A stretch of DNA of 64,000 bases, taken from contig CAWAGG010000006.1 in the NCBI GenBank assembly GCA_963781595.1, forward strand, positions 666,107 through 730,106, in the 5' to 3' direction. The translations under genes were made by a program, and so were the position numbers. Origin of the DNA: an uncultured Actinomycetota bacterium (GTDB lineage Bacteria > Actinomycetota > UBA4738). The notes under the pieces are model-generated. The model saw nothing but the letters and a program-made list of their open reading frames with translations, was not told the DNA's origin and made no database searches. Positions 2,292-64,000 of the stretch are shown here, in pieces (position 1 is the first letter of the stretch; each line of letters starts with the position of its first letter).

Positions 2292-4943
2292 GTGGAGGAA
2301 CACACCGACGTCGCCGTCGCGTGTTCGTGGTGCGGCTTCTTCTCGCGACCCGGCGGCGTATGTGACGTCTGCGGCTCGCCGCTGGAGAAAGAGGCACCGC
2401 GGCTCTCCGTCGAGGATGCGCGCAAGGCGCTGGCGACGAAGGCGCGTCCCGCATCGGTCGCGGAGGGGCGGGACGACCCGTGGGCTGGGGTCGATCGCGA
2501 GATCCGCAAGGCGATGCCCCAGCCGGACGCGAGCGTCCTCTACGACGAGGTCGAATCCGCCCAGCTCGTCCTGTGGGAGCGCCAGGCCGCGCTGGAGCGC
2601 CGCGAGAAGGCGTTCGACGACCAGCGCGAGGCGCTCGAACAGGCGCGCGCGGCCCTGCGTGAACGCGAGCAGCAGTACCAGGGCGCGGTCGCGCAGGCGG
2701 CGGCGGAGCGCGAGGAGTTCGACCGCCGGCTCGCGGAGGTGGCGGAGCGCGAGGCCCGCGCCGCCGAGCGCGAGTCGACGATCTCCGAGCGGGAGACGCG
2801 CGCCGCCGATCGCGAGGCCGGCCACGCGGCCAGGGACGTCGAGCTCGGGGAGCGGGAAGCGGCGTTCGTCGAGCTGCAGGCGGCGGCCGAGGCGCGGCAG
2901 GGCGAGCTCGCCGAGCGCGTCTCGGAGCTCGAGTCACGCGAGGCGGCGCTCGCCGAGCGCGAGCACGGCTCGGGGGAGTGGTACGAGGAGCTGTCCGCAC
3001 GAGAGGCGGCGCTCGCCGAGCGTGAGGCCGGGCTCGGCGAGCGCGAGGCACGGATCGGGCACGGCGACAGCGCGCTGTCCGACCGCGAGTCGAAGCTCGC
3101 CGCGGGCGAGGCCGGGCTCGCCGAGCGCGAGGCCGCGGCCGCCGCGGTAGAGACGGCCCTCGCCCAGGAGCGCGCGACCCTGGCGGACGAGCTGGCGGCG
3201 CTGATGCAGCGCGACGTCGACGTCGACGAACGGACCAGGGCGCTGGCGCGCCGCGAGGCGGCGCTCGCCGAGCGCGAAGCCGGGCACGCGCGCTCCGAGG
3301 ACGGGGTGACGGCCCGCGAGCAGGCGGCGATCGAGCGCGAGCGCGCGCTCGCCGAGGCGGAGGCGGCGCTCGCGGCGCGGGAGACGCAGCTCGCCGAGGC
3401 GGAGTCCGAACGGTGGGCCGGCCACGCCGAGGAGATGGACGCGGAGCTCGCGGCGCGGCTGCGGACCCTCGAGCAGCGCGAGGCCGACACGGCCCAGCTG
3501 GAGGCGATCCTCCGGACGCGCGAGGCCGGGTCGATCGAGCGCGAAGCGGCGCTCGCGAGCCGGGAGGCCGCGGCCGAGGAGCGCGAGGCCAAGACGGCGC
3601 GCCACGCGAAGGAGCTCACGGAGCGCGCAGCGACGCTGGAGGGCGCGGAGGCCGCCGCGGCCCAGCAGGCTGCGGCGCTCGCCGACCGCGAGGCCGCTTC
3701 CGCCGCGCACGAGGCCGCGTTGCAGCAACAGGAGGACGTGCTGCGCGCCGCGGCGGCGCAGCTGGAGGGCCGCGGATCCGAGCTGGCAGGCACGGAGGAG
3801 GCCGCCGCGGCGCGTGAGGCGGTGCTCGTCGCTCGTGAGGAGGCGCTCGCGCAGCGGGTCACCGGCCTGGACGAGCTGGAGATCGGGTTCGCCGAACGCG
3901 AGACGCAGCTCGCCGAACGGGAGACCGCGCTCTCCCAGCGCGAGACCCAGCACGCCGAACGCGAGACCGCGGCCACCGCGCACGGCGCGGCACTCGGGGA
4001 ACGTGACGCCGCCCTCGCGGAACGCGAGACGAGGATCGCCGAGCGGGAGGGCGCGGCTGCCGAGCATGCCGCGGCCTTGGAAGCGCGTGAGGCTGCGCTC
4101 GCCGCCCGCGAGCGGGGATCCTCAGAACGTGAAGGCGCGCTGGCCGCGCGCGCCGAGGCGCTGGATGCCCGCTCGGCAGAGCTGGACGCTCGGGAGCAAG
4201 GCCTGGGAGCCCATCCGCCGGGGGCGCAGCGGACCGAGGGGGCGGCCGCTGCCGCCGCCGCCCTGAGCGCGCTCACGGCGGACACGGCCCCGCCACCGCA
4301 GGCTCCGAAGGCCGCCGCGGCCCCGGCTGAGGGCGACGCGGCCACCCGGCCGGCCGCGAACAAGGGCAAGCAGGCGGCGACCCCTACGCCGGCCGAGCCC
4401 CGCGGCGAGCAGCCGACCAGCATCGGCGCGGAGCTGCGGGACCTGGCCGCGATCGTCGAACCGCCGCCGACGCCGCCTCGACCAACACCGGCGCCTGCAC
4501 CCGCGCCCGACGACTACAAGCCGCCGGGTCCCGGAGCCCGGATCGTGCCGCCGCCCCGGATCGAGGAGCCCGAGCCCGAACCGAAGCGAGCACCTCCCCC
4601 CGAGCCGCGGCCGAAGCCGCCCGCCAAGACCGCGTCCGCGCCCGCCGCGCGTGCGCCGGCGACACCGGAGGCGCCTGAGGCGGGCCGCAAGCGCGGTGGG
4701 CTGCGGATGCCGTCGCTCAAGCGCGATCGCAAGTCGGAGGCCGCCGCGGCCCCGGCGCGGGGCGCTGCCGCTCCGACCGGAGGCACCGCGGCCGTCGCGG
4801 GTGCCGGGTCCGGCGCGGCGGCCGACGCCGCTCCCGCGTCCATCCCCAAGTCGTCGTGCACGAAGTGCGGCCAGCCGTCCGAGCGCGCGATCTGCGAGGC
4901 GTGCCGGGACGCGCTCCAGGAGCTCCACTCGCTCAGCCTGTAG
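2292..4943 (+). CDS. Zinc-ribbon / long Ala-Arg-Glu coiled coil / Pro-Ala-rich linker / zinc-ribbon protein (883 aa), function unknown
   Basis: N-terminal CSWCG...CDVCG and C-terminal CTKCG...CEAC motifs. About 600 aa of EREAALAERE-type heptads sit between them, followed by a PxP/Ala low-complexity region. Confidence 0.75.
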   Translation: MEEHTDVAVACSWCGFFSRPGGVCDVCGSPLEKEAPRLSVEDARKALATKARPASVAEGRDDPWAGVDREIRKAMPQPDASVLYDEVESAQLVLWERQAALERREKAFDDQREALEQARAALREREQQYQGAVAQAAAEREEFDRRLAEVAEREARAAERESTISERETRAADREAGHAARDVELGEREAAFVELQAAAEARQGELAERVSELESREAALAEREHGSGEWYEELSAREAALAEREAGLGEREARIGHGDSALSDRESKLAAGEAGLAEREAAAAAVETALAQERATLADELAALMQRDVDVDERTRALARREAALAEREAGHARSEDGVTAREQAAIERERALAEAEAALAARETQLAEAESERWAGHAEEMDAELAARLRTLEQREADTAQLEAILRTREAGSIEREAALASREAAAEEREAKTARHAKELTERAATLEGAEAAAAQQAAALADREAASAAHEAALQQQEDVLRAAAAQLEGRGSELAGTEEAAAAREAVLVAREEALAQRVTGLDELEIGFAERETQLAERETALSQRETQHAERETAATAHGAALGERDAALAERETRIAEREGAAAEHAAALEAREAALAARERGSSEREGALAARAEALDARSAELDAREQGLGAHPPGAQRTEGAAAAAAALSALTADTAPPPQAPKAAAAPAEGDAATRPAANKGKQAATPTPAEPRGEQPTSIGAELRDLAAIVEPPPTPPRPTPAPAPAPDDYKPPGPGARIVPPPRIEEPEPEPKRAPPPEPRPKPPAKTASAPAARAPATPEAPEAGRKRGGLRMPSLKRDRKSEAAAAPARGAAAPTGGTAAVAGAGSGAAADAAPASIPKSSCTKCGQPSERAICEACRDALQELHSLSL
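3888..4202 (+). repeat. About 15 consecutive 21-bp (heptad-encoding) tandem units inside the coiled-coil gene
   Basis: The translation reads FAERETQ LAERETA LSQRETQ HAERETA ATAHGAA LGERDAA LAERETR IAEREGA AAEHAAA LEAREAA LAARERG SSEREGA LAARAEA LDARSAE LDAREQG. Confidence 0.7.
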
Positions 4944-4974
4944 GCGCGGCGCGCCGCCGCGCCTCGGTTCCGCG

Positions 4975-7104
<2,130 letters not shown>

Positions 7105-7142
7105 GGGTGCACGGCGGTCCTTCCGTGGATACGCTGTCGCGC

Positions 7143-7277
7143 ATGACCGCCACCTCGTCGCAGGGATCGCGCCAGCGGCGCGTGCAGCGGTTCTTCGTCG
7201 GGCTCGCGATGTCGTTCATCGCGTTCGCGCTCGAACGGGTCGTCGTGCGGGCGATCAAGCGCGGCGAGGCGGGGTAG
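7143..7277 (+). CDS. Small (44 aa) single-pass membrane protein candidate, not in the ORF track
   Basis: ATG at 7143, TAG at 7275-7277. Product MTATSSQGSRQRRVQRFFVGLAMSFIAFALERVVVRAIKRGEAG. Almost all third codon positions are G/C. It ends 8 nt before the next gene. Confidence 0.4.
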   Translation: MTATSSQGSRQRRVQRFFVGLAMSFIAFALERVVVRAIKRGEAG

Positions 7278-7285
7278 GGGCTCGG

Positions 7286-9673
7286 GTGGGGTTCAATCAC
7301 CGGCGCCTCGGACCTCGGCTCGTCGAGGCCGCGCGATCGGGCGAACGGAACCGTGACGCCCACGTCGTCCTGGGGGGCACCGGCGCGGTGGGCGGGACGG
7401 CGATCCTGCAGCTGCTCTCGCTCTACGAGGAGATGTTCGCGATCGCGGCACCCGACGACGACGACGTCCCCGTGCTCCTCGCGACCGGGGTCTCGCCCGA
7501 GGAGATCGGCGCGTTCACGAAGCGGCTCTTCCGCCACGTCGAATCCCTCCACGGTCCGGAGTGGCTGCCGCAACGGGTCCGGCGCGGGTACCTGACGCAT
7601 TCAGGCGTGTTCGTCGCGCTCGAACGCTTCACGGTGGGCACGTTGCCGGGGCTCGCCTCCGTGGTCGAGGCCGCGCCCGCGGACCGGGCCGCGGCGGCGG
7701 CGACCTTCCTGGCCTCGCTGGGCGTCGGCGGTGCCGGACCGGACGCCGTGTTCGACGCGCTCGCGGCCGCGATCGAGGCGACGAGGCCGTTCAGCGGGTT
7801 CCTCGAGGCGTACCGTTCCGAGCATCTCGAGCGCCGTGACGTCGAACGGTTCCGCAGCGTCACGCTCGCGATCCCCATCCCCAGCCTCGTCGCGTACCAC
7901 CAGGACGACCTGCAACACCTCGCGCATCAGGTCGAGGGCCTCGGGCCCGAGCACGTCGAACGGCTCAAGGAACGGTTCGTCCTGGCGCTACGCGACGACC
8001 TCGTGCGGGTGCGGTCGGTTGCGGACATCGTGCTCGTGGCCCATACGACCGGCGTCGGCGGCATGTACGACGAGCGCCCGGACGGATCGTCGACGATCCG
8101 GCTGGGGTTCGCGCACGCGGGCCTCGACCTCCGGCTCGCCGAGAAGCAGCGGTTCGCCGACGAGCTCACCCGGCTCTACAGCGCCGCGGGCATCAAGGTG
8201 CTGATCACGGCCGCGGCGATCGGCGTGGACGAGGTCCGGGTGCGCGACCGGATCCCCGTCCACCGGCAGATCCGCGAGCAGCTCCACGACGCGCCCACCG
8301 AGGTCTATCCGGGTTCGAAAGGCGCTGCGCGCCATACGCTCTGCTCGTACCGGCCGCTGACCGTCCCGCTCGACGAGCCGCCGGCAGGCGACGTGACGTT
8401 CGAACGCGGTTCGGAGCTCGTCCCCGCCTACACGGTGCGCAGCGGCGAGAACGGCTTCTTCAGCGTCGCGAACGCCGACGCCCTGTACCGCGTGATGCGG
8501 GTCGCGTCGGCCGGTGAGCTGGGCCTGGTGCTCGCGACCGTCGCGCTGCTCGACGACGATCCCGTGACCCCGTGGTTCCCGGGCGACGTCTGCTACTACA
8601 CGGAGACGGACAACGCGCGCCAGGTCCTGGACTTCCTGTCGCAGCCCTCGCTGATGGCCACCCAGCTGTCCGGCCTCGAGCCCGGCGCGCTGCAGGACCT
8701 GGGCTCGGCGAAGCACCAGGCCGAACTCCACACCCTCACGCTGCTGATCCTGCTCCACCGTCTCCGCACGTTCGACGTGGACGCGATCGATCCGTACGTC
8801 GACCTCGACCACTTCGATCCCGAGTGGTTCTTCGTGCAGAACTCGCGCGCGCTCACGTTCGAGGACGTCGGGGCGTGGGAGTTCGACCGCCTGGTGGCCG
8901 ACCTCACCCGGCTCGCCGGGGCCGAGGAGCCCGACGATCTCCTCGCGCTCACACCGCCGCGGGAGTACGGCCTGTTCCCGCAGCGCCGGGAGGCGCTCCG
9001 GCGGGTGTTGGACCGGGCGCTCCGGGCGGTCTGGACGCCGCCGTCGCTCGGGTCGCCGGTGCTGTTCGAACGTGCCGGCGTCACGATGGTAAGGATGGGT
9101 TACTATCTCGCGCCGCTCGACCTGCTCGTCACCCAGACGGACGCCGCGCTCACGTGGCTCCGCAAGGAGCACGCGGAGAGCGGGAACCCGTGTTCGTTCG
9201 AGGACTTCCGCGACTACCACGTCACCGTGGGAGGGTTCGTGGACCTGCGCGAGCACGCGACCGTGGTGAGCGCCCGGAGCGACCGCGACGACCTCACCGG
9301 CCACGTCGCACGGTTCGGCGACGAGGCGAGCCTCCGCGACCACCTGTGGACCCTCGAGCCGTATTCGTTCTTCTCGACCTCCGGCGTGCTGGCCCTCGTC
9401 TTCCGGCTGAAGGGCCTGTACGCCCAGCTCCGGGAGGTCCTGCTCGAGCTCGGCAGCCTGCAGGGCTATCGCTGGCAGATGCCGAGGGACGAACACGGCC
9501 ACATCCTGGTGGTCCCTGGCGCCGTCGAGGCGTTCCGGATGGTCGCTGAGGGCCTCGAGAAGACCACCGGCACCGAGCGCCTCGACGGGATCTGGGGCTA
9601 CGAGCCGCGACCGGTCGCCGACCGCCGCGGCCGGATCCCGGGCATCCAGCAGCCGAACGGCGACGGCCGGTAG
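7286..9673 (+). CDS. Large (795 aa) hypothetical protein with an N-terminal Rossmann-type GGTGAVGG motif
   Basis: Long uninterrupted frame with a GTG start. VVLGGTGAVGGTAILQ lies near the N-terminus. I recognise no other family signature. Confidence 0.7.
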   Translation: MGFNHRRLGPRLVEAARSGERNRDAHVVLGGTGAVGGTAILQLLSLYEEMFAIAAPDDDDVPVLLATGVSPEEIGAFTKRLFRHVESLHGPEWLPQRVRRGYLTHSGVFVALERFTVGTLPGLASVVEAAPADRAAAAATFLASLGVGGAGPDAVFDALAAAIEATRPFSGFLEAYRSEHLERRDVERFRSVTLAIPIPSLVAYHQDDLQHLAHQVEGLGPEHVERLKERFVLALRDDLVRVRSVADIVLVAHTTGVGGMYDERPDGSSTIRLGFAHAGLDLRLAEKQRFADELTRLYSAAGIKVLITAAAIGVDEVRVRDRIPVHRQIREQLHDAPTEVYPGSKGAARHTLCSYRPLTVPLDEPPAGDVTFERGSELVPAYTVRSGENGFFSVANADALYRVMRVASAGELGLVLATVALLDDDPVTPWFPGDVCYYTETDNARQVLDFLSQPSLMATQLSGLEPGALQDLGSAKHQAELHTLTLLILLHRLRTFDVDAIDPYVDLDHFDPEWFFVQNSRALTFEDVGAWEFDRLVADLTRLAGAEEPDDLLALTPPREYGLFPQRREALRRVLDRALRAVWTPPSLGSPVLFERAGVTMVRMGYYLAPLDLLVTQTDAALTWLRKEHAESGNPCSFEDFRDYHVTVGGFVDLREHATVVSARSDRDDLTGHVARFGDEASLRDHLWTLEPYSFFSTSGVLALVFRLKGLYAQLREVLLELGSLQGYRWQMPRDEHGHILVVPGAVEAFRMVAEGLEKTTGTERLDGIWGYEPRPVADRRGRIPGIQQPNGDGR

Positions 9674-43590: not shown

Positions 43591-43785
43591 ATGAAGAAGT
43601 TGCTCCTGATCATCGGTTTGATCGCGGCGGTCGGTGCGATCCTCATGGTGCTGCGCAACCGCGGATCGGACATCTCGGTCTCGGACTGGGACGACGTGCA
43701 GGGCGTCGCCTCGGATGTGTCCGCGTCGGCGAAGGACGCCGTGTCGGATGCCGCCGAGGCCGCGAAGGACGCGACGAACGCCTGA
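43591..43785 (+). CDS. Small (64 aa) membrane-anchored protein
   Basis: SD AGGAGG at 43575-43580. Product begins MKKLLLIIGLIAAVGAILMVL, then an acidic Ala/Ser/Asp tail. Confidence 0.55.
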   Translation: MKKLLLIIGLIAAVGAILMVLRNRGSDISVSDWDDVQGVASDVSASAKDAVSDAAEAAKDATNA

Positions 43786-43917
43786 GGTCGACGGACCGCG
43801 CGGCCCGTTCCGGTCGGGTTCCGCGCGCGAGGACGAACGGCATGTTACGGCCGCCGGCTCGGCATCGAGGAGCCGGCGGCCGCGCCATCTCCCGACGACC
43901 CGGTCCTGGCGCTCGGC

Positions 43918-45337
43918 CTACCGGAGGATCGAGCGGAGCACCCGCCGGCGGACGTACGTGTACGGCGGGTACTGCAGCGGCACCTCGGGCCTCGTCGGCT
44001 TCCACAGGACCGCCCGCCGGTGGCTGAACGTCTCGAAGCCGTGCCGGCCGTGGTACGCGCCCATGCCGCTGTGGCCGATCCCACCGAAGGGCAGGCCGGG
44101 CACGGCCAGGTGCACGACGCAGGTGTTCACGCAGGCCCCGCCCGACCGGGTGGAGCCGATGACGCGGTCCGCCGTCGCCTCTGAACGCGTGAACACGTAG
44201 AGCGCCAACGGTTCCGGGCCCGGCCCGTACCGTGGCGATCGCCTCGGCGATCTCGTCGAACGCGATCACCGGCAGGATCGGTCCGAAGATCTCCTCGCCC
44301 ATCAGCGGCGCATCCGGCCGCACGCCGCGCACGATGGTCGGCGCGATGTACCGTTCGGCCTCGTCCCGCTGGCCGCCGAGCACGAGCTCTTCGTAACCGC
44401 CGCCGTCGATGAGTGCGGCCAGACGGCGGAAGTGGTTCGCGTTCACGATCCTCGCGTAGTCTGCGCTGTGCCTCGGATCGGGCCCGTAGAAGCCCCCGAC
44501 CTCGGCGACGAGGAGCTCCAGCAGGCGCGCTTCCACGCGACGGTCGACGAACACGTGGTCGGGCGCGACGCACGTCTGGCCGGCGTTGATGAATTTCCCG
44601 TACGCGATGCGGCGGGCGACGACCGGGAGGTCCGCGTCAGCGGCGACGATGGCCGGGGACTTCCCGCCCAGCTCGAGCGTTACCGGGGTCAGGTGCGTCG
44701 ACGCGGCCTCCATGACGATCCGCCCGACGCGCGCGTTCCCCGTGTAGAAGATGTGGTCGAACCGCTCGGCGAGGAGCGCCTGGGTCTCCTCGACGCCTCC
44801 CTCGACGATCGCGACCCCGTCCGGGTCCAAGTAGCGCCGGACCAGCCCGGCGAGGGCCTCCGATGTCGCGGGCGCGAGCTCGGAGGGCTTGCCCACCACC
44901 GCATCACCGGCGGCGATCGCGGCCGCCATCGGGGCGAAAAGGAGCTGGACCGGGTAGTTCCACGGCGCGATCACGAGCGCCACGCCGACCGGCTCCCGGA
45001 CGATCCGCGCGCGGGCCGGTTGCAGCACCCAGCGAACCCGGACGCGTTCCGGGCGCATCCACGCGTCGATGTTGCGGAGCAACCCGTCGATCTCGCCGAG
45101 GACGAACGAGATCTCGCTGACCCAGGTCTCGATCGGCGGCCGGCCCAGGTCCTCGCGGAGGGCCGCCTCCAGCGGGCGCGCTCCGTCGCGGAGGAGCCGT
45201 TGCATCGCGCGGAGCTGCGTCCGGCGCCACGCCAGCGGACGCGTGCGCCCGGCCTCGAACCCGCGGCGGAGCCGGCCGACGACTTCCGAGGCCGTCCGGC
45301 CGGGCGTGGCATCCACGGCATCCATCAGGAGGGTCAT
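43918..45337 (-). CDS. Class-3-like NAD(P)+ aldehyde dehydrogenase, frame broken once as sequenced
   Basis: Motifs VIAPWNYP, ELGGKSP and GQTCVAPD, up to ..IATVRAGP, are in one frame. EPLALYVFTRSE...FGGIGHSGMGAYHG is in another (switch at 44211-44223, context gggcccgg). Length mod 3 = 1. Confidence 0.7.
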
Positions 45338-55057: not shown

Positions 55058-56232
55058 ATGAGGGACGCGAACGCGACGAAGAAGCGGTCCGCGACGGGCG
55101 CAAGGCGAGGCGCCCGACCCGGACGGCGGATGGTGCGGGACCGCGTGGTGGAGCTCATCCGCGTCCGGGCGGGTGAGCTGACCCCGAACCCTGCGAACTG
55201 GCGCCGGCACCCGGAGCGCCAGCGCTCCGCCCTGCGCGGGCTGCTGCGGGAGATCGGGTACGCGGACGCACTCCTGGCGCGACGCGACGGCGGCTCCCTC
55301 GTGCTCATCGACGGACACCTCAGGCAGAGCCTGAACCCCGACCAGGTGGTGCCGGTCCTGGTCTTGGACGTCACGGCCGAGGAGGCCGACACCCTGCTGG
55401 TGACCCTGGATCCTCTCGCGGCCCTGGCCGTCCCCGATCCTCCGGCCCTGGCGGCCCTGCTGGAGCGGGTCCACGCCTCCAACCAGGCGGTGGCCGAGCT
55501 CCTGGCCGGCTTGGTCCGCCAAGCCGGGCTCCCGAGGGTCCGGCCGCTCGCCGACCCCAGGAGATCCCGGCCGTTCCCTCGACCCCCCGGACCCAGCGCG
55601 GCGACCTGTGGGAGCTTGGGGAGCACCGTCTCCTGTGCGGTGACGCGACGAGTGAAGCGGACCTCGCCCGTCTGATGGCCGGGGAGCGGGCCGAGGTCCT
55701 GTGGACCGACCCCCCGTACGGGGTGCGCTACGTCGGCAAGACCAGCCGGCGCCTGCGGATCGCGGGCGATACTGAGCCCGGGCTCGAGGCCCTGCTCGAG
55801 GCGTCCCTGCGGGTGGCCGGCGCCCATCTGGCCCCGGGGGCCCGGATCTACCTGTGTCACCCGGCCGGGTCTCTGCAGGTGGTGTTCCTCCAGGCCTTCA
55901 TCGCCCAGGGATGGCGCCTGCACCAGACCCTGGTCTGGGTCAAGGACTCCATGGTTTTGGGCCACGCGGACTACCACTTCCGACACGAGCCGATCACCTA
56001 CGGGTACGCCCAGGGGCCGGGACGGTGGGGACGGGGGGCGAAGGGATGGTACGGGCCGAGCTCCCAGGACTCGGTGATCGAGGTGGCCCGGCCCAGAGCG
56101 TCGCGGGAGCATCCAACCGCCAAGCCCGTGGAGCTCGTCCGGCGATGCCTCGCCAACAGCTCAACCGACGGCGACGGGGTCCTCGATCCGTTCGCAGGCT
56201 CGGGCTCGACCCTCCTGGCTTGCGAGATGTGA
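55058..56232 (+). CDS. ParB-like nuclease domain fused to an N4/N6 DNA methyltransferase; frame broken once as sequenced, and the 3-prime end abuts the IS
   Basis: ParB part: ELTPNPANWRRHPERQRSALRGLLREIGY..LIDGHLR. After a C4 run at 55555-55558, the next frame reads QEIPAVPSTPRTQRGDLWELGEHRLLCGDAT...TDPPYGV...TAKPVEL..DPFAGSGST. The stop TGA (56230-56232) is the first 3 nt of the IS inverted repeat. Length mod 3 = 2. Confidence 0.7.
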
Positions 56233-56269
56233 ATCACCCTGGGTTTGATGGAGGCTCGGGACGTTGGGT

Positions 56270-57154
56270 TTACGCCACCTCCTCCCTCTCGGCGAGCGCC
56301 CGATAGTAGGCCGCTTCGAACTCCACCGGTGGGACGCCGCCACATGCGCCGTGTAGCCGTCGCTCATTCCACCACCCCACCCACTCGGCGGTGGCGAGCT
56401 CGACCTGATCGACCGTGCGCCAAGGGCCCCGGGGACGGATGAGCTCGGCCTTGTACAGCCCGTTCACGGTCTCGGCCAGAGCATTGTCGAAGCTGTCCCC
56501 CTTGGATCCGACGGAGGCCACGGCGCCGCACTCGGCCAGGCGCTCGGTGTAGCGGATGGACAGGTACTGCACGCCGCGATCGGAGTGATGCACGAGGCCC
56601 TCCAGAGCGCTCTTGCGGCTCCAGATGGCCATCTCCAGGGCGTCCAGGGCGAGATCGGCCCGCAGCGAGGAGGAGACCCTCCAGCCCACGATCATGCGGG
56701 AGAACGCGTCGGTGATGAACGACGTGTAGCAGAAGCCCGACCAGGTCGAGACGTAGGTCAGATCCGAGACCCAGAGCAGGTTCGGAGCCGGAGCGGCGAA
56801 GATGCGCTCGACCAGGTCCGCCGGACGGGCGGCCTGGGCGTCCGCGACGGTGGTGCGCCTGCGCTTGCCCCTCCTGACCCCTTCCAGGCCCAGGACGCCC
56901 ATGAGACGGGCGACCCGGTCCCGGCCGACGTCGACGCCCTCCCGGTTCAGCTGCCGCCAGAGCTTCTCCGCTCCATAGACCGAGAAGTTCTCGCGGTGGA
57001 CCCGGGTGATCTCAGGCTTCAGCTCGGCGTCGCGGAGCGACCGGGCCGACGGAGGGCGGCTCCGGTGCGCGTAGTAGGTGGATGGGGCGAACTGCAGCAC
57101 CCTGCAGATCGGCTCGACCCCCCATCGGTGACGGTGCTCCTCGATGAAGGCCAC
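56270..57154 (-). CDS. IS3 transposase orfB (DDE rve integrase core)
   Basis: In the -1 frame relative to orfA and open upstream of the orfA stop. Contains LWVSDLTYV (D), HHSDRGVQYLS (D) and NALAETVNGLYKAE (E). Confidence 0.85.
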   Translation of the reverse strand: MAFIEEHRHRWGVEPICRVLQFAPSTYYAHRSRPPSARSLRDAELKPEITRVHRENFSVYGAEKLWRQLNREGVDVGRDRVARLMGVLGLEGVRRGKRRRTTVADAQAARPADLVERIFAAPAPNLLWVSDLTYVSTWSGFCYTSFITDAFSRMIVGWRVSSSLRADLALDALEMAIWSRKSALEGLVHHSDRGVQYLSIRYTERLAECGAVASVGSKGDSFDNALAETVNGLYKAELIRPRGPWRTVDQVELATAEWVGWWNERRLHGACGGVPPVEFEAAYYRALAEREEVA

Positions 57155-57525
57155 TACCTCGGCAGTCGCGGGTCGAGCTCCCGCGCGAAGAAACTTGCCG
57201 CGGCCTTGAGGATCTCGTTGGCCCGGCGGAGCTCGCGGACCTCCCGCTCGAGCTCGGCCGTGCGCCGGCGCTCCTCGGTGCTCACCCCGGAGCGGCTCCC
57301 GGCGTCGACCTCGGCCTGGCGGACCCAGGTGCGCAGCGACTCCGCGCCGATCCCGAGCTGGCGGGCCACCCGGGTCACCACGCCGAAGCGCTCCCCGCCG
57401 TTCTCCTCGATGCCCTGCTGGACCATCCTGATCGCCCGCTCACGAAGCTCCGGCGGGTACCTCTTCTGGGACTGGTTGGCTGCCATGACTCCATCTTCCT
57501 TTCCAAGCGATGGAGCCTCCACCAT
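57154..57525 (-). CDS. IS3 transposase orfA (HTH_Tnp_1)
   Basis: Contains KRYPPELRERAIRMV and a leucine-zipper-like tail ELRRANEILKAAASFFARE. The likely true start is the ATG at 57486, inside the track ORF. Confidence 0.85.
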   Translation of the reverse strand: MVEAPSLGKEDGVMAANQSQKRYPPELRERAIRMVQQGIEENGGERFGVVTRVARQLGIGAESLRTWVRQAEVDAGSRSGVSTEERRRTAELEREVRELRRANEILKAAASFFARELDPRLPR

Positions 57526-57551
57526 TCCCAGGGCGATTCAGTCGAGAAAGT

Positions 57552-58072
57552 CTAGACGGGCCTACCGACAGTCCTAGCCGAGTAACTCCAGCTCGACCCA
57601 ACCGCGGGCCACCCCTCCCGGACGGGTCTCCGTTTCGATGGGCCGCCCGCACTCCAGTGGGAGATCGCGAGCCGTGCGAGGCTGCCTTCGAGCGACGAGC
57701 GAGCAGCGGTGCGCGAGCCGCTCCTCATGCGTTTGGCCTCGACGACCGTGAGTCGCAGGACGTTGGCCTCGCACTCCAGGAAGAAGCCGTCGAACTCGGT
57801 TACCTGTGTCGGCCCTTCGTACGCGATCACTGGAGCCATCGCCACCGCGACGCAAGCGGCCGGTCGTTGCCGGAGCGTTCGCGCGAGCATGAGTATCTCC
57901 GTCGAGCGCGACGCCGGCACCTCCTTCCGTTTGGCTTCGCGCTCAGGGATCCGACGGGCGCTTCGGCGAGGCACCAGGAGTGCTCCGTCCCACGAACCCC
58001 GCGCCCCCACTCCCAGGTGACGGCGGGTCGGAAGCACAGGGGAACGCTCTGGAGCAACGAATGCCGGCTCAT
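57552..58072 (-). CDS. Fifth gene of the Ubl operon: PD-(D/E)xK-like nuclease candidate, frame broken once as sequenced, 3-prime end 12 nt from the IS
   Basis: The ATG at 58072 overlaps the E1 stop (ATGA). The first ~50 codons (MSRHSLLQSVPLCF...) are in one frame. The next frame reads ...VIAYEGPTQVTEFDGFFLECEANVLRLTVVEAKRMRSG (D...E-A-K). Length mod 3 = 2. Confidence 0.35.
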
Positions 58073-59456
58073 CGCCGCGCCGCGACCGATGTCCGGATGT
58101 AACCCGGGTTGACCGGTGCCCGCGGTAAGGGGTTCGGGGACGTGTGGATGAATTGCGGGGTCCTGAGGTCGACCTCGGTCCATTGGAGGGCGAGGCCACC
58201 GGCGAATTCGCGAAGTACCGCTGCGAGCGACAGCGATCCAGCGATTGCGCCCACGAAGGACGCGCCTATCGATAGCCCGGCGATCTGGCGCACGCCGCAG
58301 CTGGCATCGCCTGGATCGGAGCCTTGGTCGATGAGACGTCGGGTCTCCAGCGCGTACGCATCCACGTCGGGTGCGCGCCGTGGAGCGGTGGGCAGGAAGA
58401 CCTTGGCGGGATCCAGCCCTGAGGGGAACTCGTACAGCATGATGTCGAGGTAGTCGTCCTCACGACCCCCGATCCCCGCGTCGATGACCCAGGGGAAGCG
58501 GTCGCCCAGGAGTTGTCGCGGCACATGATGGTCGAACCCGGCCAACGCGATCGCTGGTTCTTCTGGCCGTCGGCGGAATGAGTCGTCGAAGGGACGCTCG
58601 ATGATTGCGGTACGGAACCCGAGCGCTTCGAGCCGCCGGCTCACGACCCGCGTCTTCCGCTCATCGACATCTCCGTGCAGGGCGAGAAGCGAGGTCGCGA
58701 GGTTGCCCTCGACGACCGAATCGAAGTCCTGCAGTACCACCTCCACATCGCCGTGCCGCTCGCCGTAAGGCAGACAACCGAGAGCCCACGCGTTCCCTTG
58801 TCCGAGATGGCCGAGGCCGATCAGCCACAGTTGCTGGGGGAGCAAGGTCAGCTCTGGGCCGTCGGATGCGTCCTCGAGCCACTCGAGGTCTGGGCGCCAT
58901 AGCGAGATGCCCGCAGACCGACGACCGGCGACCGGTGTCCGGGTGACGTTCTGGAAGCACTCGGATACGGCGATCGCGCCGGCAACGCCACCCGCCAGAG
59001 GGAGCGCGTTCGCTTCCCCGAGACGCTCGGCCCCGTTCGCGACCACGCCGCCTCGCCATCCTTGCCATGTCGTGCGCACGATGATGGAGCCCGGGGTAGG
59101 CTGGACCGGACGGCCAATCACGATGGTCGGGTGATCCTCATCGAGCTCGTCGCACGGGGTTCCCCCGAAGGCTTGGACGGCCGCAGAAGCCATCGCGCCT
59201 GCGCCCCAACCGTGCGTCAACGCTTCGTCGGATTCGAGCCGGACCTTCAGGCGCCGAGGAAAGCCCGGCGGCCCGCGTTGATCGCGGTGAGGAGCGCGTG
59301 CGTCGCCGCGCTGTCGTTGGCCAGGCCTGGCCCGACGTCGATCTGGAGGATCCATCCCTTTAGCCGTTCTTCCGCTTCCTGAAGGGTCTTGGCCTTGCCC
59401 GTGTCGACGAGCAGCTTCGCCGAGCGATGGAACCCATCGGCAGACGGTTGCCTCAC
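58069..59456 (-). CDS. E1-like ThiF-family adenylating enzyme with an N-terminal extension, frame broken once as sequenced
   Basis: The GTG at 59456 overlaps the JAB stop (GTGA). Rossmann motif LWLIGLGHLGQGNAW, then VVLQDFDSVVEGNLATS. The N-terminal 69 codons (..INAGRRAFLGA) are in a different frame from KVRLESDEAL... (switch at 59247-59256). Length mod 3 = 2. Confidence 0.7.
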
Positions 59457-59956
59457 GGGCGCTTCCCCACGTAGAGCCGTCGTCGGGCGGCGCGGCCGGT
59501 CCAATGGCGCCAGGCCGTCCCTTCATAGAGATGCACGCCGACATCCCGAGGACGAACGGGTTCCCGAGCGAACCGAGGAACGATCAGCGCGACGTGGCCG
59601 CGTGCGGCGACCATCGGATTCGTTCTGTCGATGTCGCTCTGGTCGACCCAGGTCGCAGGGTGGGTGTGAACGTCGCCAACGACACGGAGTTGCTCCTCGT
59701 GGCAGAGGTCCCACAATGCACCGTATGCCCGGCCGCGAAAATGGATGCCACCCTGAAGGCACGCCGGGTCGAGATCGTCGAGATACACGACCCGAACGAT
59801 CCTCCGGGGATGGTCGGTGCGAGAAGCCAGGAGGAACGCACCAGCCTCCCGCTCGCCGTTGCCGCGTCGACCCAACTCGCTGATGAGCCCCCGCCATGCC
59901 CTGCGGTCGAAGCGAATGAGCGCGGAACTCCTAGACACCTGCGTAGCCCGGGCCAT
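59453..59956 (-). CDS. JAB/MPN (JAMM) metalloisopeptidase
   Basis: Upstream Glu in EREAGAFLL, and the full JAMM motif HTHPATWVDQSDID (H-x-H-x7-S-x2-D). Start at ATG 59956 or GTG 59938; both overlap the end of the E2-like gene. Confidence 0.8.
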   Translation of the reverse strand: MARATQVSRSSALIRFDRRAWRGLISELGRRGNGEREAGAFLLASRTDHPRRIVRVVYLDDLDPACLQGGIHFRGRAYGALWDLCHEEQLRVVGDVHTHPATWVDQSDIDRTNPMVAARGHVALIVPRFAREPVRPRDVGVHLYEGTAWRHWTGRAARRRLYVGKRP

Positions 59957-60413
59957 TGAGGGCGTCGCTAACCTGCCGAACGTAGAAGACGATCGTACGA
60001 TCCGGTGTCCATGCCGCGCGGGGATGCTTCTGGGTCCACTCCGGATGCGAGCCGAGCGCACGCCGATCGAAGGCGGCGTACAGGGCGACCCCCCCCTCCC
60101 AGTCCGTCCGGAAGATCACGCCTGCCACCTCGCCCTTCGGGTAGAGGCCCGGATCGAGCTGAGCGTTCCTCTCCAGATCCCACGGCATGGCCGTCGGGGC
60201 GTCCTGCGGGTAGTTGACGAGCTCGAACCGGAGCGCGACCTCCGCCGGCGCGTCTGGCCGGGGCTCGGCCCTGACCGCGATGATCGCGTGGGGCCACGTC
60301 AGATCGACCAGCCGCCACCTACCGGCCCTCTCGGCTGCCACGAAGCCGCCTCCGCCCAGGTGCAGTCGGAACATCCGCTCGTCGGGGTCCACCCCTGGCT
60401 GTTCCGACGTCAT
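59931..60413 (-). CDS. E2/UBC-fold-like protein with no cysteine in the frame as read
   Basis: The ATG at 60413 overlaps the Ubl stop (ATGA). EVALRFELVNYPQDAPTAMPW matches the UBC/RWD YP..P...W strand-loop pattern. 160 aa with zero Cys. Confidence 0.55.
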   Translation of the reverse strand: MTSEQPGVDPDERMFRLHLGGGGFVAAERAGRWRLVDLTWPHAIIAVRAEPRPDAPAEVALRFELVNYPQDAPTAMPWDLERNAQLDPGLYPKGEVAGVIFRTDWEGGVALYAAFDRRALGSHPEWTQKHPRAAWTPDRTIVFYVRQVSDALNGPGYAGV

Positions 60414-60898
60414 CCCTCGAATCGATCCCTGGGGGCGAGGTCGAGGCAGAGGGCGCAGTCGCTCGGCCGAGGAAGCGAGCCGATGTGGATCGACCGGTCG
60501 AGGAAGTGGTCGGCGCCGCAAACGGCGAGCACCAGGTTCGCCACCTGGTCCTCGGGGATGTCGAAGCCGTGCTTGCCGACGGCCCACTTGAGCACCCGCT
60601 CCACCTTGGCTGATGGGGGGAAGAGGTGCTCCTTCTCGCCGTTGTGCCGGACGGTCACCTTCAGTCGCCGGCACCGCCCGCGGTGGAGATGCGCGTGCTC
60701 ACCGATCCCGACTTCGGCCAGCACTGTGTCCGCGTCCAGGGGCTCGTCGCCGTCCTCGACCCAGATCATGTCGCCTTCGGCCTTGCCGCCGGAGGCGAGG
60801 ATCAACGCCTCGGCGGTCGTGGTGTTGGTGAACTCCACCAGGCGGGGCTCCTCCTCGCCTTCGATGTGCAGGAACAGCTCCATGAGCGACCTCCTCAT
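60410..60898 (-). CDS. Tandem beta-grasp (ISG15-like / multiubiquitin-type) Ubl protein ending in ...RFEG
   Basis: Two ~75-85 aa halves (MELFLHIEGEEEPRLVEF...HLHRG and RLKVTVRHNGEKEHLFPP...LCLDLAPRDRFEG). The best start is the ATG at 60883, preceded by GAGGAGG. The C-terminal residue is Gly. Confidence 0.6.
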   Translation of the reverse strand: MRRSLMELFLHIEGEEEPRLVEFTNTTTAEALILASGGKAEGDMIWVEDGDEPLDADTVLAEVGIGEHAHLHRGRCRRLKVTVRHNGEKEHLFPPSAKVERVLKWAVGKHGFDIPEDQVANLVLAVCGADHFLDRSIHIGSLPRPSDCALCLDLAPRDRFEG

Positions 60899-60994
60899 CC
60901 CCCACTCCGAGAAGCGGAGCGGTAGAGTCCTATACGTGTTCGGTTCATCGTATCAGAATGCTGTACCTGGCGGGTAAAGTTTTCTCCGTGCGAC

Positions 60995-61342
60995 ATGGAG
61001 CTCACCTTCGATCGCGTCGAGCTCGCCGAGGTCTGCAACTCTGCGCCGCTCATGAGAGCGCGTTGGGGTGATGAGGGGTTCGAGGCCGTGGCCCGCCGGC
61101 TGGGAGAGTTGGCCGGAATCGAGTCGCTCGCGGACATCACCTACCTACCCGGCGCGCGCATGAGGGGAGACGGTTCGGGCATGATGCTCCTCGGCTTCGG
61201 AGCGAGCGTCGTCATACAGGGGATTACGACCGACGATGCGGGTGCTCCTGTGTCCGTGGATGGGGATCGACCCGTGACCTGCTTCAGGGTGCATGAGGTC
61301 GAATACTTGGGGAAGGAGAACGTCGATGGTGCCCTCGGCTGA
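60995..61342 (+). CDS. HigB-like (RelE superfamily killer protein) candidate
   Basis: MELTFDRVELAEVCNSAPLMRARWGDEGFEAVARRLGELAGIESLADITYLPGARM follows the HigB N-terminal pattern. It overlaps the downstream HigA-type gene by 17 nt. Confidence 0.4.
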   Translation: MELTFDRVELAEVCNSAPLMRARWGDEGFEAVARRLGELAGIESLADITYLPGARMRGDGSGMMLLGFGASVVIQGITTDDAGAPVSVDGDRPVTCFRVHEVEYLGKENVDGALG

Positions 61343-62408
61343 CCTCGCCTATCGGCCGGACCACGTCATCGCTCCGGGGGCGACCCTGCGCGACCGGCTC
61401 GCGGAGATTGATGTGTCGCAGGCAGAGCTCGCTCTGCGAGCGGGCCTGTCACCGAAGCATGTGAACCAGATCGTCCAGGGCCAGGCATCGATCACGCCGG
61501 AGACGGCCCTCATCCTCGAGCGGGTGACGGGGACGCCGGCGAGGATCTGGAGCGCGCTCGAATCACGCTACCGCCAAGCCAAGATGAGGGAGCAGGCCAG
61601 AACGCTGTCGCCCGAGGACGTCGCGTGGGTGGATTCCCTCCCTACCGCGAGCCTTCAGAAGATGGGCTATCTCCCCTCAGCGATCCCTCGCGGCGAGCTG
61701 TTCGAGGCGCTCCTCTCGTTCTTCGGCGTCGCCGACCGCGCGGCGTGGGAGCGCCTCTGGCTGCAGCCGGTGGCGAGTTTCAAACGCGCGACGGCGTTCA
61801 AGAGCGATGGACCGATCGTCGCGACCTGGCTCCGCTTGGGGGAGCTCGATGCACGAGACATCAAGACGGCGAGCTTCAACGCCTCCGACTTTCGAGCAGC
61901 ACTCTCGCACATCCGCGGGCTCACTCGAGCGGCCGACTTCTCAGCCGAGTTGGTCGCGGCGTGCGCGAAGGCAGGGGTGGCCCTCGTGTTCGTGCGGGAG
62001 ATCGGCGGCGAGCGAGCGAGCGGGGCGAGTCGATGGCTCAGTGCGTCCCGTGCCCTCATACAGCTCAGCGACCGCTACAAGCGGGAAGATCATTTCTGGT
62101 TCGCCTTCTTCCACGAGGCTGCCCACGTCCTATTGCATTCGAAGAAGCAGACGTTCATCCATGACGGCAGCGAGGATCCGAGACTCGAGGGGGAAGCGAA
62201 CAGATTCGCGAGTGACGTGCTGATCCCGCGTTCGCAGGCTCATCGCCTTCCGCACCTCACAACTACCTCGGACGTTCTTCTCTTCGCAGATGAGATCGGT
62301 ATAGCGCCGGGCATCGTCGTCGGGCGACTTCAGCATGATCACTTCTGGTCCTGGAAGCGAGGCAACGATCTCAGGGCCCCTGTCCGGATCGTGTCCTCAG
62401 ATCGGTAG
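61326..62408 (+). CDS. HigA-type XRE HTH fused to an ImmA/IrrE (M78) metallopeptidase domain
   Basis: HTH: VIAPGATLRDRLAEIDVSQAELALRAGLSPKHVNQIVQGQASITPETALILERVTG..IWSALESRY. Peptidase: FAFFHEAAHVLLH plus EANRFASDVLIP. Confidence 0.75.
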   Translation: MVPSADLAYRPDHVIAPGATLRDRLAEIDVSQAELALRAGLSPKHVNQIVQGQASITPETALILERVTGTPARIWSALESRYRQAKMREQARTLSPEDVAWVDSLPTASLQKMGYLPSAIPRGELFEALLSFFGVADRAAWERLWLQPVASFKRATAFKSDGPIVATWLRLGELDARDIKTASFNASDFRAALSHIRGLTRAADFSAELVAACAKAGVALVFVREIGGERASGASRWLSASRALIQLSDRYKREDHFWFAFFHEAAHVLLHSKKQTFIHDGSEDPRLEGEANRFASDVLIPRSQAHRLPHLTTTSDVLLFADEIGIAPGIVVGRLQHDHFWSWKRGNDLRAPVRIVSSDR

Positions 62409-62728
62409 ATTAGATGGCATCGTGGCCAGATTCACCCAGCGGGGTCTCTGCACGTTGGTGTTCCTCCGGGCCTTCATCGCGCAGGACGATTGACGACCTG
62501 GCTGGCGACGACCATCGGTTCATCGCCCAAGCGTTCTGCAACACGCCGAACGTACTGATCATGGTCTGCGAGTCGACGGCAACAGGCCGCATCGCACCGG
62601 GGTGTTCGCGTTTCGTGCCGGCTATACACAACGCCACTTGACTGGCGCGTACCCACGGGTGCGCGCAGAAGCATGCCTCCATCCGTCCCCCCGAGGAGGC
62701 TTGAGTTCCGGAGAACTCGGCAGGCCCG

Positions 62729-63286
62729 TCATCTACCTACGCAGTATTCCTCGCTGGCGCTATCACGCCGCCCACACGCTGCCACGTCGACAACACGATA
62801 ACCCCCGCCCTGATCGCCGTTAACCGAGAAGAGGATGGACCGATCTGCATCCGTCGTCGAGCAGGTGAGGCTGGTCCGGTTCACCCAACTGCAGTAGTCG
62901 GGAGGCGGATAGCGTGGCTCCCAGCGGATCGCGAAGAGCGTTGCGGCGGCGGTCTTCGTGGCAACGATGCCGGCATCGGACCTGTTGAAGGTGCGCCAGT
63001 CATCGTAGAGCCGTTGCGCGGTCACGAGAGCGGCCGCTGGATACGCGTTCGTCGTCGCGGGTACCGACGTTCCACCCGGGCTCGCTGGAGAGGTCGGAGC
63101 CTTCGCGCACGAGACGGCGAGCGAGAGCGCGATCAGCGCCATCGCGCAGCCGGCAGCGCGCGCGCCGAGAAGACGGGTCCCGCTCACGGTGGATGAATCG
63201 GCTCGGTGCTCTCTAACCTTGAGGTGCTTAGGTTGCCAATTGCCCGGTCCCCACGTGTGGGGCCTACGCGATGCGTATCCTTTCAT
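62729..63286 (-). CDS. Lipoprotein-like small protein immediately downstream of the Rhs toxin tip (possible immunity protein)
   Basis: ATGA overlap with the Rhs stop at 63283-63286. Internal lipobox ALSLAVSCAK. Four further Cys. The true start may be internal. Confidence 0.45.
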   Translation of the reverse strand: MKGYASRRPHTWGPGNWQPKHLKVREHRADSSTVSGTRLLGARAAGCAMALIALSLAVSCAKAPTSPASPGGTSVPATTNAYPAAALVTAQRLYDDWRTFNRSDAGIVATKTAAATLFAIRWEPRYPPPDYCSWVNRTSLTCSTTDADRSILFSVNGDQGGGYRVVDVAACGRRDSASEEYCVGR

Positions 63287-64000
63287 CGCCGGCCTCGGTC
63301 AGGCCTGAGAGCAAAGAAACAGACCTGCTGGGACCATTCGTCCCTTGCCAGGCCCGTATAGACATCCAAGATCTCGGCAGGATCCCCGGTAACGCCGACG
63401 TATCGAGCGACGAACGCCCATGCGACGGTCTCGGTCGGATTGTGCTTGGGGAATATCCGCAGGCAATCGAGTGCGATGCCCGGAATGATGAGTCGTACGG
63501 CTGTGCCGTGGCAAGGGCCACCAGCACGATAGAAGTCCATGGTGTCATACGCCGCCGAGTACAGCTGCCCGAGCGCATCACAGGCCGCACTGAGGTTCGG
63601 ACAGAGTCCAGATGGGTCCGGTTGAGTAAGTGGTTGATTGTCGCCGTACGGATACGGTGATGTCAGTGGAGACGCGTGGGCTGAACCGAGTGGATCTGCC
63701 TGGTTGAATCGTCCGAGCGAAGGGTCGTAAACACGAGCCCGCAGGTCGTACAGGCTCGAAGCCGAGTCGAGGAGCTGTCCATTGAATCGCATCACGTTCG
63801 TCGGGGGGCTCCCGCCCGAGGAGGTCGCCGAGGTCGCGACCCCGAACGCGTCATAGGCGTACGTCCACCGGGTCGCGCCGCCTGAGGTCGTGATGTTCGC
63901 GACGTTGCCGTACGCGTCCAGGTGGTCGTAGTACGTCGATCCGGCACCTGTCGTCATCGAGTCCAGGCCCTGGCCGTGCGCGTAGTCCCGGAGCGTCGAT
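63283..64000 (-). CDS. Rhs/YD-repeat protein, C-terminal end with a variable toxin tip (5-prime part outside the window)
   Basis: YD repeats (YDHLDAYGNV, YAYDAFG). Core end RFNGQLLDSASSLYDLRARVYDPSLGRFNQADP and the DPSGL boundary, then a ~105-aa unrelated tail. Confidence 0.8.
   Translation of the reverse strand, partial: STLRDYAHGQGLDSMTTGAGSTYYDHLDAYGNVANITTSGGATRWTYAYDAFGVATSATSSGGSPPTNVMRFNGQLLDSASSLYDLRARVYDPSLGRFNQADPLGSAHASPLTSPYPYGDNQPLTQPDPSGLCPNLSAACDALGQLYSAAYDTMDFYRAGGPCHGTAVRLIIPGIALDCLRIFPKHNPTETVAWAFVARYVGVTGDPAEILDVYTGLARDEWSQQVCFFALRPDRGRR

Follow-up and report, generated by a model that had tools for sequence, protein, structure and literature searches.

A Type I Bil operon with a cysteine-free BilB in an uncultured Actinomycetota bacterium, and aromatic residues at the catalytic-cysteine site across the BilB family

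We analysed a window of 64,000 nucleotides from an uncultured Actinomycetota bacterium (contig CAWAGG010000006.1, positions 666,107 to 730,106 of the forward strand; coordinates below count from the first letter of the window). Four minus-strand genes at 58069-60883 are almost certainly a Type I BilABCD operon, a bacterial ISG15-like anti-phage operon, which was acquired horizontally, has a divergent helix-turn-helix (HTH)/M78 module that is probably its regulator, and lies beside an IS3 element. The locus is an unexceptional representative, possibly decayed, of a defence family that is already known and has been characterised by experiment. Its E2-like protein, BilB, contains no cysteine, and a large clade of related operons shares with it an aromatic residue at the position of the published catalytic Cys. 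Taken as a whole (identity of the operon, E2 step and state of this copy), the explanation given here is the best we have and is probably correct. The four genes are:

60410-60883, minus strand: bilA, ISG15-like tandem ubiquitin-like (Ubl) protein of 157 aa, ending in RFEG-stop (PADLOC BilA, full length)
59931-60413, minus strand: bilB, E2/UBC-fold protein of 160 aa (PADLOC BilB, Pfam DUF7665, AlphaFold2 and Foldseek)
59453-59956, minus strand: bilC, JAB/JAMM isopeptidase of 167 aa with E..HTHP..S..D intact (PADLOC BilC)
58069-59456, minus strand: bilD, E1 made of an inactive adenylation domain, an active adenylation domain and a Cys loop (PADLOC BilD)

Identification of the operon

A first-pass annotation, made from the letters alone, had read these genes as an antiphage-type Ubl/E2/JAB/E1 cassette of the Bil kind and had proposed a PADLOC search. 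All four Bil profiles were matched, with E-values of 2.4e-42 for BilA, 1.2e-49 for BilB and 2.5e-59 for BilC; BilD was matched in two pieces, C-terminal (1.5e-112) and N-terminal (2.1e-16). Pfam assigned the bilB product to DUF7665/BilB-like (5e-40). An independent Logan assembly contig (L001, run ERR11718635) matches window 57541-63869 at 100% identity, including the frame breaks, and terminates exactly at the boundary of the insertion sequence (IS), at 57541; newer Pfam labels on its identical genes are BilA_UBL_2, BilB-like and BilD_N.

The AlphaFold2 (AF2) model of the window BilB (predicted local distance difference test, pLDDT, 95) was compared with known structures by Foldseek, and its best matches in the PDB were the BilB chains of Ensifer aridi (8TZ0/8TYZ), followed by UbcH7-type E2s. 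The bilC product carries the full JAMM motif E..HxH..S..D, whose residues are invariant in 75 of 75 relatives, and has a weak PDB match to the deubiquitinase (DUB) BilC of E. aridi, 8tyx. The closest solved adenylation domain to that of BilD is ThiF, and both GLGHLGQ and C387-G are invariant among BilD homologues. The terminal Gly of BilA is retained in nearly all relatives. The beta-grasp, UBC, JAMM and E1 assignments of the first-pass annotation all hold (by PADLOC and Pfam, and for BilB by AF2 with Foldseek), and with them its reading of the cassette; that the first product is a tandem Ubl ending in Gly is known from sequence profiles, BilA being matched over its full length up to RFEG-stop.

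Related loci were sampled by a scan with the BilD profile over one genome per GTDB species, which gave 80 loci. The order bilA-bilB-bilC-bilD was found in 80 of 80, and placement of the homologues in sulfur-carrier or cofactor operons was not seen. Gene content, order and protein sizes read as textbook Type I BilABCD. The composition had been called unusual and the locus not placeable in a described subtype, and neither statement survives this comparison. By analogy with known Type I systems, the window locus is predicted to defend against phages by conjugation of BilA to phage tail proteins.

A sulfur-carrier or cofactor pathway of the MoaD/ThiS-ThiF type, or an accessory module of CBASS Cap2/Cap3, would also have a beta-grasp protein with a terminal Gly, and the BilD adenylation domain is distantly ThiF-like. 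Such a function is hardly credible here: the matches to the BilA-D profiles are specific (E 1e-42 to 1e-112), E2 and JAB genes are always present in related loci, no biosynthetic or CD-NTase neighbours occur in the window, and the E2 and E1 are separate genes, unlike in Cap2.

The four start/stop junctions of the first-pass annotation are all present in the sequence. ATGA at 60410-60413 holds the bilA stop and the bilB start, GTGA at 59453-59456 the bilC stop and the bilD start, and ATGA at 58069-58072 the bilD stop and an ATG in a trailing open reading frame (ORF), ORF 5. The stop of bilB (59931-59933) overlaps bilC by 26 nt if bilC starts at the in-frame ATG 59956, or by 8 nt if it starts at GTG 59938; the PADLOC BilC alignment favours ATG 59956. 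An alternative bilA start at ATG 60898 would give 162 aa, but ATG 60883 (157 aa) is the likelier start because a Shine-Dalgarno-like GAGGAGG sits before it.

The catalytic-cysteine site of BilB

No cysteine was found anywhere in the 160 aa of the window BilB. Among the 33 closest BilBs there is one conserved Cys column, in the motif LY-x-P-C-D-R, which is occupied by Phe in the window and by Tyr, Phe or Trp in several others. We took the Collimonas BilB sequence from Table S2 of Millman et al.; its C113, the Cys of LYIPCDR, was aligned by MAFFT with window F115 (codon TTC, 60069-60071). Mutation of this residue (C113A) abolished defence in Collimonas (Hör et al.). F115 occupies the catalytic-Cys column, an equivalence settled by the AF2 model with Foldseek and by the alignment to the Collimonas sequence. 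Comparison of the BilB family with E. aridi BilB by hhalign was insignificant (probability 1%), and nothing useful came from searching PDB sequences with the profile of that family.

Across 73 related genomic loci, the C113 column holds Cys in 33, Trp in 29, Phe in 8 and Tyr in 3. The codons are TGY, TGG, TTY and TAY, each aromatic being one base step from Cys; Ser, Arg and Gly, the other one-step products, were never seen at this column among the related loci. In a crude neighbour-joining (NJ) tree of BilA, BilC and BilD, the aromatic loci form one clade, which is centred on Actinomycetota and Chloroflexota; the window Phe form branches next to lineages with Trp and not with the main Phe group. 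Two Cys-bearing BilBs, of L042 (Chloroflexi bacterium UBA4730) and L021, come from loci with the E1 Cys loop and the tree position of the aromatic clade, and may represent either intermediate stages of the switch from Cys to an aromatic residue or reversions of it. The first-pass annotation had also noted a cysteine-free E2 fold. This was confirmed (F115, zero Cys in the product), though not as an outlier trait, since it is common to a large clade and to validated Bil systems.

Sequence conservation shows the rest of the cascade to be kept, namely an adenylating E1 with its Cys, a Ubl with a free terminal Gly and a JAMM peptidase. Within the aromatic clade, 41 of 42 loci retain the catalytic Cys of BilD (the one without it is on a truncated contig), 42 of 42 have the JAMM residues, and BilA ends with Gly in nearly all; four full-length ORFs in canonical order were found in 40 genomic loci. 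BilB itself retains the motif Y112..D116-R117..H123..W126, with changes near the site (window numbering) from Trp to Arg at 91, to Lys at 93 and from Leu to Ala at 113. A relocated Cys was not found in the clade: 19 of 42 BilBs are entirely free of Cys, and in any single column at most 7 of the 42 proteins carry one. Averaged over pairs, sequence identity in the clade is 0.50 for BilB and 0.49 for BilD, and the median ratio of nonsynonymous to synonymous substitution (dN/dS) is 0.38 and 0.39, respectively, in comparisons that are saturated and GC-biased. BilB remains under purifying selection in the clade, as constrained as BilD, and all this makes the replacement of Cys a selected state, not a private lesion. 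A candidate covariation, in which the residue two before the E1 Cys is Asp in the Cys clade and Ala, Ile or Val in the aromatic clade, was rejected as it fails in the validated systems.

The wider BilB family and the validated operons

A wider profile search for BilB gave 120 cluster representatives listed, in which the C113 column is Trp in 83, Cys in 28, Tyr in 4, Phe in 3, Val in 1 and Ile in 1, i.e. 92 of the 120 have no Cys there. All 77 Caulobacter/Thiomonas-like BilBs (P0173-P0249) have Trp. Of these 77, 75 have another conserved Cys, which falls at window position 65 within the motif L-x-C-D-G-(F/Y)-P and may be a relocated or second catalytic Cys. The corresponding window residue is the Leu of RFELVNYP, and the same column holds Cys in 21 of 33 Cys-clade loci. 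BilB homologues were also found on 22 plasmids; no BilB match was obtained in 50,697 phage records.

Five operons were scored as defensive in E. coli by Millman et al. (Collimonas, Cupriavidus, Caulobacter, Thiomonas and Paraburkholderia caffeinilytica CF1). Their C113 column is Cys in Collimonas and Cupriavidus, Trp in Caulobacter and Thiomonas, and Tyr in P. caffeinilytica CF1, whose BilB, re-read from the plasmid, has a Cys at the extreme C-terminus only. The list of ISG15-like operons of Millman et al. also includes Lentzea albidocapillata, and we found its operon (L035) to be a Phe-type member of the window clade. In BilB of both types, I and II, Chambers et al. described a Cys/His pair that they call "highly conserved"; judged by its catalogued sequences, the BilB family is not defined by the published catalytic Cys. 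The cysteine-free E2 is real and widespread, and we found neither discussion nor explanation of Cys-less BilB forms in the accessible Bil literature, which is absence of evidence only.

A proposed E2 step and its alternatives

The mechanism proposed here was taken from the literature on Collimonas and E. aridi, and its steps are supported in the window and its relatives by conserved sequence features. BilD would adenylate the C-terminal Gly of the di-ubiquitin-like BilA and would move it onto its own conserved Cys (C387 in the repaired protein described below) as a thioester. BilA would end on lysines of a phage structural protein, and BilC, the JAMM peptidase, would trim or remove the conjugates. 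In the published system, BilA is conjugated to the central tail fibre of the phage, and tail assembly is blocked (Hör et al.).

In the aromatic clade, BilB is not expected to carry a thioester, because the C113 column is aromatic and no Cys is conserved elsewhere. We propose that it would instead serve as a non-covalent partner, UEV-like (ubiquitin E2 variant) or E3-like, stabilising and positioning BilD~BilA and the target, and that BilA would pass straight from the E1 Cys to the target Lys. The UEV pseudo-E2s Mms2/Uev1a are UBC-fold proteins that act without a Cys as non-catalytic partners, and archaeal SAMP-UbaA is a case of E2-independent, E1-only Ubl ligation; both are functional analogies only, unrelated in sequence, and no homology is claimed. 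A non-covalent role is in keeping with three published findings: BilB is needed for the solubility of the E1 and has a proposed target-recognition loop or role (both Chambers et al.), and a Ubl~E2 thioester went undetected even in Collimonas (Hör et al.). We lean towards this role, with the E1~BilA thioester resolved by the target Lys, while giving it slightly less than an even chance. The wider proposal is more tentative still. It holds that the aromatic clade is functional in defence and conjugates its Ubl without a covalent E2 intermediate, that BilB there is a selected pseudo-E2 with a functional aromatic side chain and BilA goes from the E1 Cys to the target, and that Cys is a minority state (28 of the 120 representatives listed), so that the published E1-to-E2-to-target model would not describe most Bil systems.

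Several points weigh against this proposal. The direct E1-to-lysine route is inferred only. The validated operons lie outside the window clade, so that function of the clade is argued from analogy, and Collimonas requires its BilB Cys. Caulobacter and Thiomonas may have moved their catalytic Cys and, if so, give no proof of cysteine-free function; the Paraburkholderia system alone is without both cysteines (C113 column and position 65), and its Tyr could form an oxyester. The Cys-bearing locus L042 nests within the aromatic clade in the crude NJ tree, and the dN/dS values suffer from the saturation and GC bias given above. Finally, the window proteins depart from the clade at 18 of its 201 conserved columns, where the median is 1.9%, with three such columns in the frameshift zone of bilD; given these deviations and the broken bilD, this copy may say nothing about function.

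The oxyester could be the general solution, with BilA passed to a hydroxyl of BilB (Tyr112, the Cys-replacing Tyr or Thr74) as in Bub operons, which conjugate through E1-Tyr and E2-Ser oxyesters and have no catalytic cysteines. Tyr112 and Thr74 are invariant or nearly so, and Tyr stands at the site in the validated system of Paraburkholderia. However, the window and most clade members have Trp or Phe there, neither of which is nucleophilic; the conservation of Tyr112 and Thr74 is just as high in Cys-bearing BilBs, so that no clade-specific replacement is seen; and the E1 Cys is retained, unlike in Bub. An oxyester route is possible for the Tyr forms, not for those with Phe or Trp, and as the explanation of the E2 step we consider it unlikely.

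The frame break in bilD and the state of this copy

The bilD gene is not a single ORF in the window. The frame that starts at GTG 59456 has 69 codons and stops at 59247-59249, and the remainder, in another frame, reaches 58069. In PADLOC, the first piece covers positions 5-68 of the BilD profile and the second 68-451, and they abut at 68. The break corresponds to a 1-nt deletion (GGCGGCCTG to GGCGCCTG) at ~59250-59255: the conserved Gly-Gly of bilD is GGCGGC, and the window reads GGCGCC-TGA. Programmed frameshifting was considered and rejected, as there is no slippery site and a simple deletion of G in GGCGGC is seen.

When one G was put back, a 462-aa protein was obtained that aligned over 97-99% of its length with homologues of 455-471 aa (916 at E<=1e-10) and contained the invariant C387, the catalytic Cys, at codon 58297-58299. 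The E1 had been credited with an N-terminal extension of about 150 aa; because the repaired BilD aligns end to end with its homologues, this is the family's standard inactive adenylation domain (Pfam BilD_N). Such an N-terminal domain has been described for the BilD family by Chambers et al.

The deletion was also found in Logan contig L001. Given the deletion and the stop that immediately follows, we regard it as an evenly balanced question whether the window copy is inactive in this genome. An assembly error is possible, because an unrelated aldehyde dehydrogenase gene in the window (43643-45337, minus strand) is likewise frameshifted. It is split inside a GGGCCGGGCCCGG run, with the break near 44208-44230, and its two parts read in different frames, one covering Pfam Aldedh positions 33-388 and the other 399-461. 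Such a break suggests that the assembly contains indel errors or that pseudogenisation is widespread in this genome.

Plasmid pAKP20 of Amnibacterium kyonggiense (NZ_OP178894.1, locus 4059-7400; L083) also carries a Bil operon, accompanied by the same divergent pair of putative regulatory genes as in the window. Its BilB has Ala at the C113 column and retains the Cys-clade Trp at position 91, and its bilD is frameshifted between the N-terminal domain and the rest. This is apparently a second decaying copy, on a completely sequenced plasmid.

It could be argued that the aromatic-E2 operons, or at least the window copy, are dead or decaying and that loss of the Cys was an inactivating mutation. 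Consistent with this are the frameshifted bilD of the window, its disrupted ORF 5 and nearby methyltransferase, the unusual substitutions of its proteins at conserved sites, and the pAKP20 operon with Ala at the site and a frameshifted bilD. We nevertheless consider it decidedly unlikely. The clade has 40 genomic loci with four full-length ORFs in canonical order and a conserved E1 Cys, JAMM motif and terminal Gly, BilB is as constrained as BilD in clade identity and dN/dS, aromatics alone are tolerated at the site, and the window frameshift may be an assembly artefact like the split aldehyde dehydrogenase. We continue to prefer a non-covalent role for BilB as the reading of the aromatic site.

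Genes adjoining the operon

The features next to the four bil genes are:

57575-58183, minus strand: ORF 5, frameshifted relic with the motif E-x-D-G ... E-A-K (homology to P0154)
60995-61342, plus strand: small conserved protein of 115 aa (homologues in the same place in ~17 related loci)
61326-62408, plus strand: HTH_3 + Peptidase_M78 (ImmA/IrrE) protein (Pfam, PADLOC)
56230-57540, minus strand: IS3-family insertion sequence (HTH_Tnp_1 and rve domains, inverted repeats)
57154-57525, minus strand: IS3 orfA
56270-57154, minus strand: IS3 orfB

The coding sequence of ORF 5 is spread over three frames, and at least two frameshifts are needed to read through it. No match was found in Pfam, PADLOC or NCBIfam. 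Its relatives among 1.84 billion representatives are nine proteins (P0154-P0162; best P0154, 201 aa, 2.4e-25), which are stand-alone proteins of 150-200 aa or C-terminal domains of ~600-aa proteins, and in this very small, uncharacterised family E-x-D-G and E-A-K are invariant. The gene may begin upstream, at ATG 58183 with homology from ~58162, i.e. inside bilD, in which case the ATGA at 58069-58072 may be an internal Met. Two candidate identities were rejected. That ORF 5 might be the 3' end left of a longer gene, interrupted when the Bil cassette inserted, was examined by tblastn with the long homologues, and no N-terminal pieces were found elsewhere in the window. A PD-(D/E)xK nuclease has the motif-like E-x-D-G ... 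E-A-K in its favour, with no Pfam match and no support from the fold: the model of P0154 (pLDDT 86) gave no nuclease or other significant fold in the PDB (best E 0.03, TM 0.2).

The first-pass annotation had labelled this gene "D...EAK nuclease-like", from the motif, and had counted it as an extra putative effector. A five-gene Bil/Bub-like system of a new subtype, with the trailing protein as nuclease effector, would fit the ATGA that overlaps the bilD stop and the invariant E-x-D-G and E-A-K of the family. It is very improbable, as ORF 5 has at least two frameshifts and homology that may start before the ATGA, inside bilD, matches no defence profile, and is related to a protein whose model matches no nuclease. 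Moreover, tblastn found no ORF 5 homologue beside any of the 80 related Bil loci (0 of 80), and clustering of their downstream ORFs gave no conserved fifth gene after bilD. ORF 5 is not a Bil component and reads as an unrelated pseudogene.

On the other side of the operon, the 115-aa protein is divergent from bilA across a 111-bp intergenic region and has no family match. The protein that follows it has a HigA-type HTH (Pfam HTH_3 3.7e-09, Peptidase_M78 9.8e-11), and its PADLOC matches are PD-Lambda-2_B (4.6e-24, the best), RmrA and, more weakly, capP (5.4e-07). This divergent pair adjoins the operon in 19 of the 42 loci of the aromatic clade and in none of the 33 of the Cys clade, and stands at the same positions in L035, L011, L013, L016, L022-L025, L029, L032, L033, L037, L038, L044, L045 and L083. 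It is probably a CapH/CapP-type regulator module of the operon, by analogy, because it recurs beside Bil operons of the clade and because CapH/CapP modules adjoin Type II Bil operons. The pair had been read as toxin-antitoxin-like; its recurrence with 19 of 42 clade operons makes a regulator more likely.

The mobile setting described by the first-pass annotation was borne out, in that the operon lies in a stretch flanked by the IS and Rhs genes. From 57 to 64 kb the GC content is lower than in the rest of the window, and no tRNA gene was found there. The IS3 element has 28-nt terminal inverted repeats (56230-56257 and 57513-57540) but lacks a target-site duplication. On one side an N6/N4 DNA methyltransferase gene is truncated by it (flank 55675-56232, PADLOC MTase_II 2.4e-38), and on the other it abuts ORF 5. 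Because there is no target-site duplication, the methyltransferase is truncated and the ORF 5 relic is abutted, the two flanks may not have been contiguous originally, and an IS-mediated rearrangement may have joined them.

Towards its end, where the genes run off it, the window has two minus-strand reading frames, at 62729-63286 and 63283-63957. They comprise an Rhs repeat-associated core with a C-terminal tip (TIGR03696, 1.1e-18) and, after it, a 185-aa ORF without family match; a toxin tip with its immunity protein is the probable identity of the two.

Comparison with known systems

In gene content and gene order the window agrees with the Type I operon of Collimonas sp. OK412 (Millman 2022; Hör 2023/2024), and the four products are of similar size (Collimonas/window: BilA 163/157, BilB 161/160, BilC 173/167, BilD 461/462, the last after repair). 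Both have a di-Ubl BilA with terminal Gly, the JAMM motif and the E1 Cys. The BilBs are 36% identical in the MAFFT alignment; that of Collimonas has its essential C113, whereas that of the window has F115 and no Cys. The window also differs in its divergent pair of small protein and HTH/M78 protein and in its frameshifted bilD.

Caulobacter sp. Root343 and Thiomonas sp. FB-6 (Trp) and P. caffeinilytica CF1 (Tyr) resemble the window in the aromatic at the C113 column and in keeping the E1 Cys and the terminal Gly. Their BilBs are 25-30% identical to that of the window and belong to separate lineages, and the Caulobacter-like subfamily has the conserved Cys at position 65 that the window clade is without. 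P. caffeinilytica has HTH and ImmA/IrrE genes upstream that are separate and co-oriented, whereas in the window they are fused and divergent.

The window BilB is structurally closest to that of the Type II system of E. aridi (8TZ0/8TYZ/8TYX), whose BilC is matched weakly in sequence. This system shares with the window the gene order and the E1 architecture of inactive adenylation domain, active adenylation domain and Cys domain, and its CapH/CapP-type regulators lie upstream and divergent, as does the candidate regulator pair of the window. Its Ubl has a single domain with a processed tail, whereas the window BilA is tandem and ends at Gly, and its E2 has a CEHH motif with C138, which the window BilB does not have. 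The HTH_3 and M78 peptidase chemistry of the candidate regulator in the window is that of CapH/CapP and of RosmerTA RmrA/PD-Lambda-2_B, and the module of the window is divergent and beside a defence operon. It differs from CapH/CapP in that HTH and peptidase are fused (360-371 aa) and preceded by the 115-aa protein.

Bub operons (6E/DUF6527), like the window locus, are defence-type ubiquitination-like cassettes whose E2 is without a catalytic Cys. They use Ser (E2) and Tyr (E1) as nucleophiles and always have the serine protease BubE, whereas the window has an E1 Cys and Phe at the E2 site; no DUF6527 match was found by Pfam among the ORFs. In CBASS, Cap2 is a fused E2-E1, with Cap3 and a CD-NTase in the operon. 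The window E2 and E1 are separate, and no CD-NTase or CBASS profile was matched among the scanned neighbours.

Implications

The locus itself adds little, being one more Bil operon, possibly broken, in a mobile stretch of a high-GC genome. The main point is that a large clade under purifying selection, and likewise three of the five validated defensive operons, have Trp, Phe or Tyr where the literature places the catalytic Cys of BilB. The question can be tested directly with systems that have already been cloned, e.g. at Y119 of Paraburkholderia or at the Trp and C65 of Caulobacter. If conjugation without an E2 thioester were confirmed, it would reveal a natural non-catalytic UBC-fold protein, or direct ligation by the E1, inside a complete ubiquitination-like cascade, and would bear on the evolution of E2 function.

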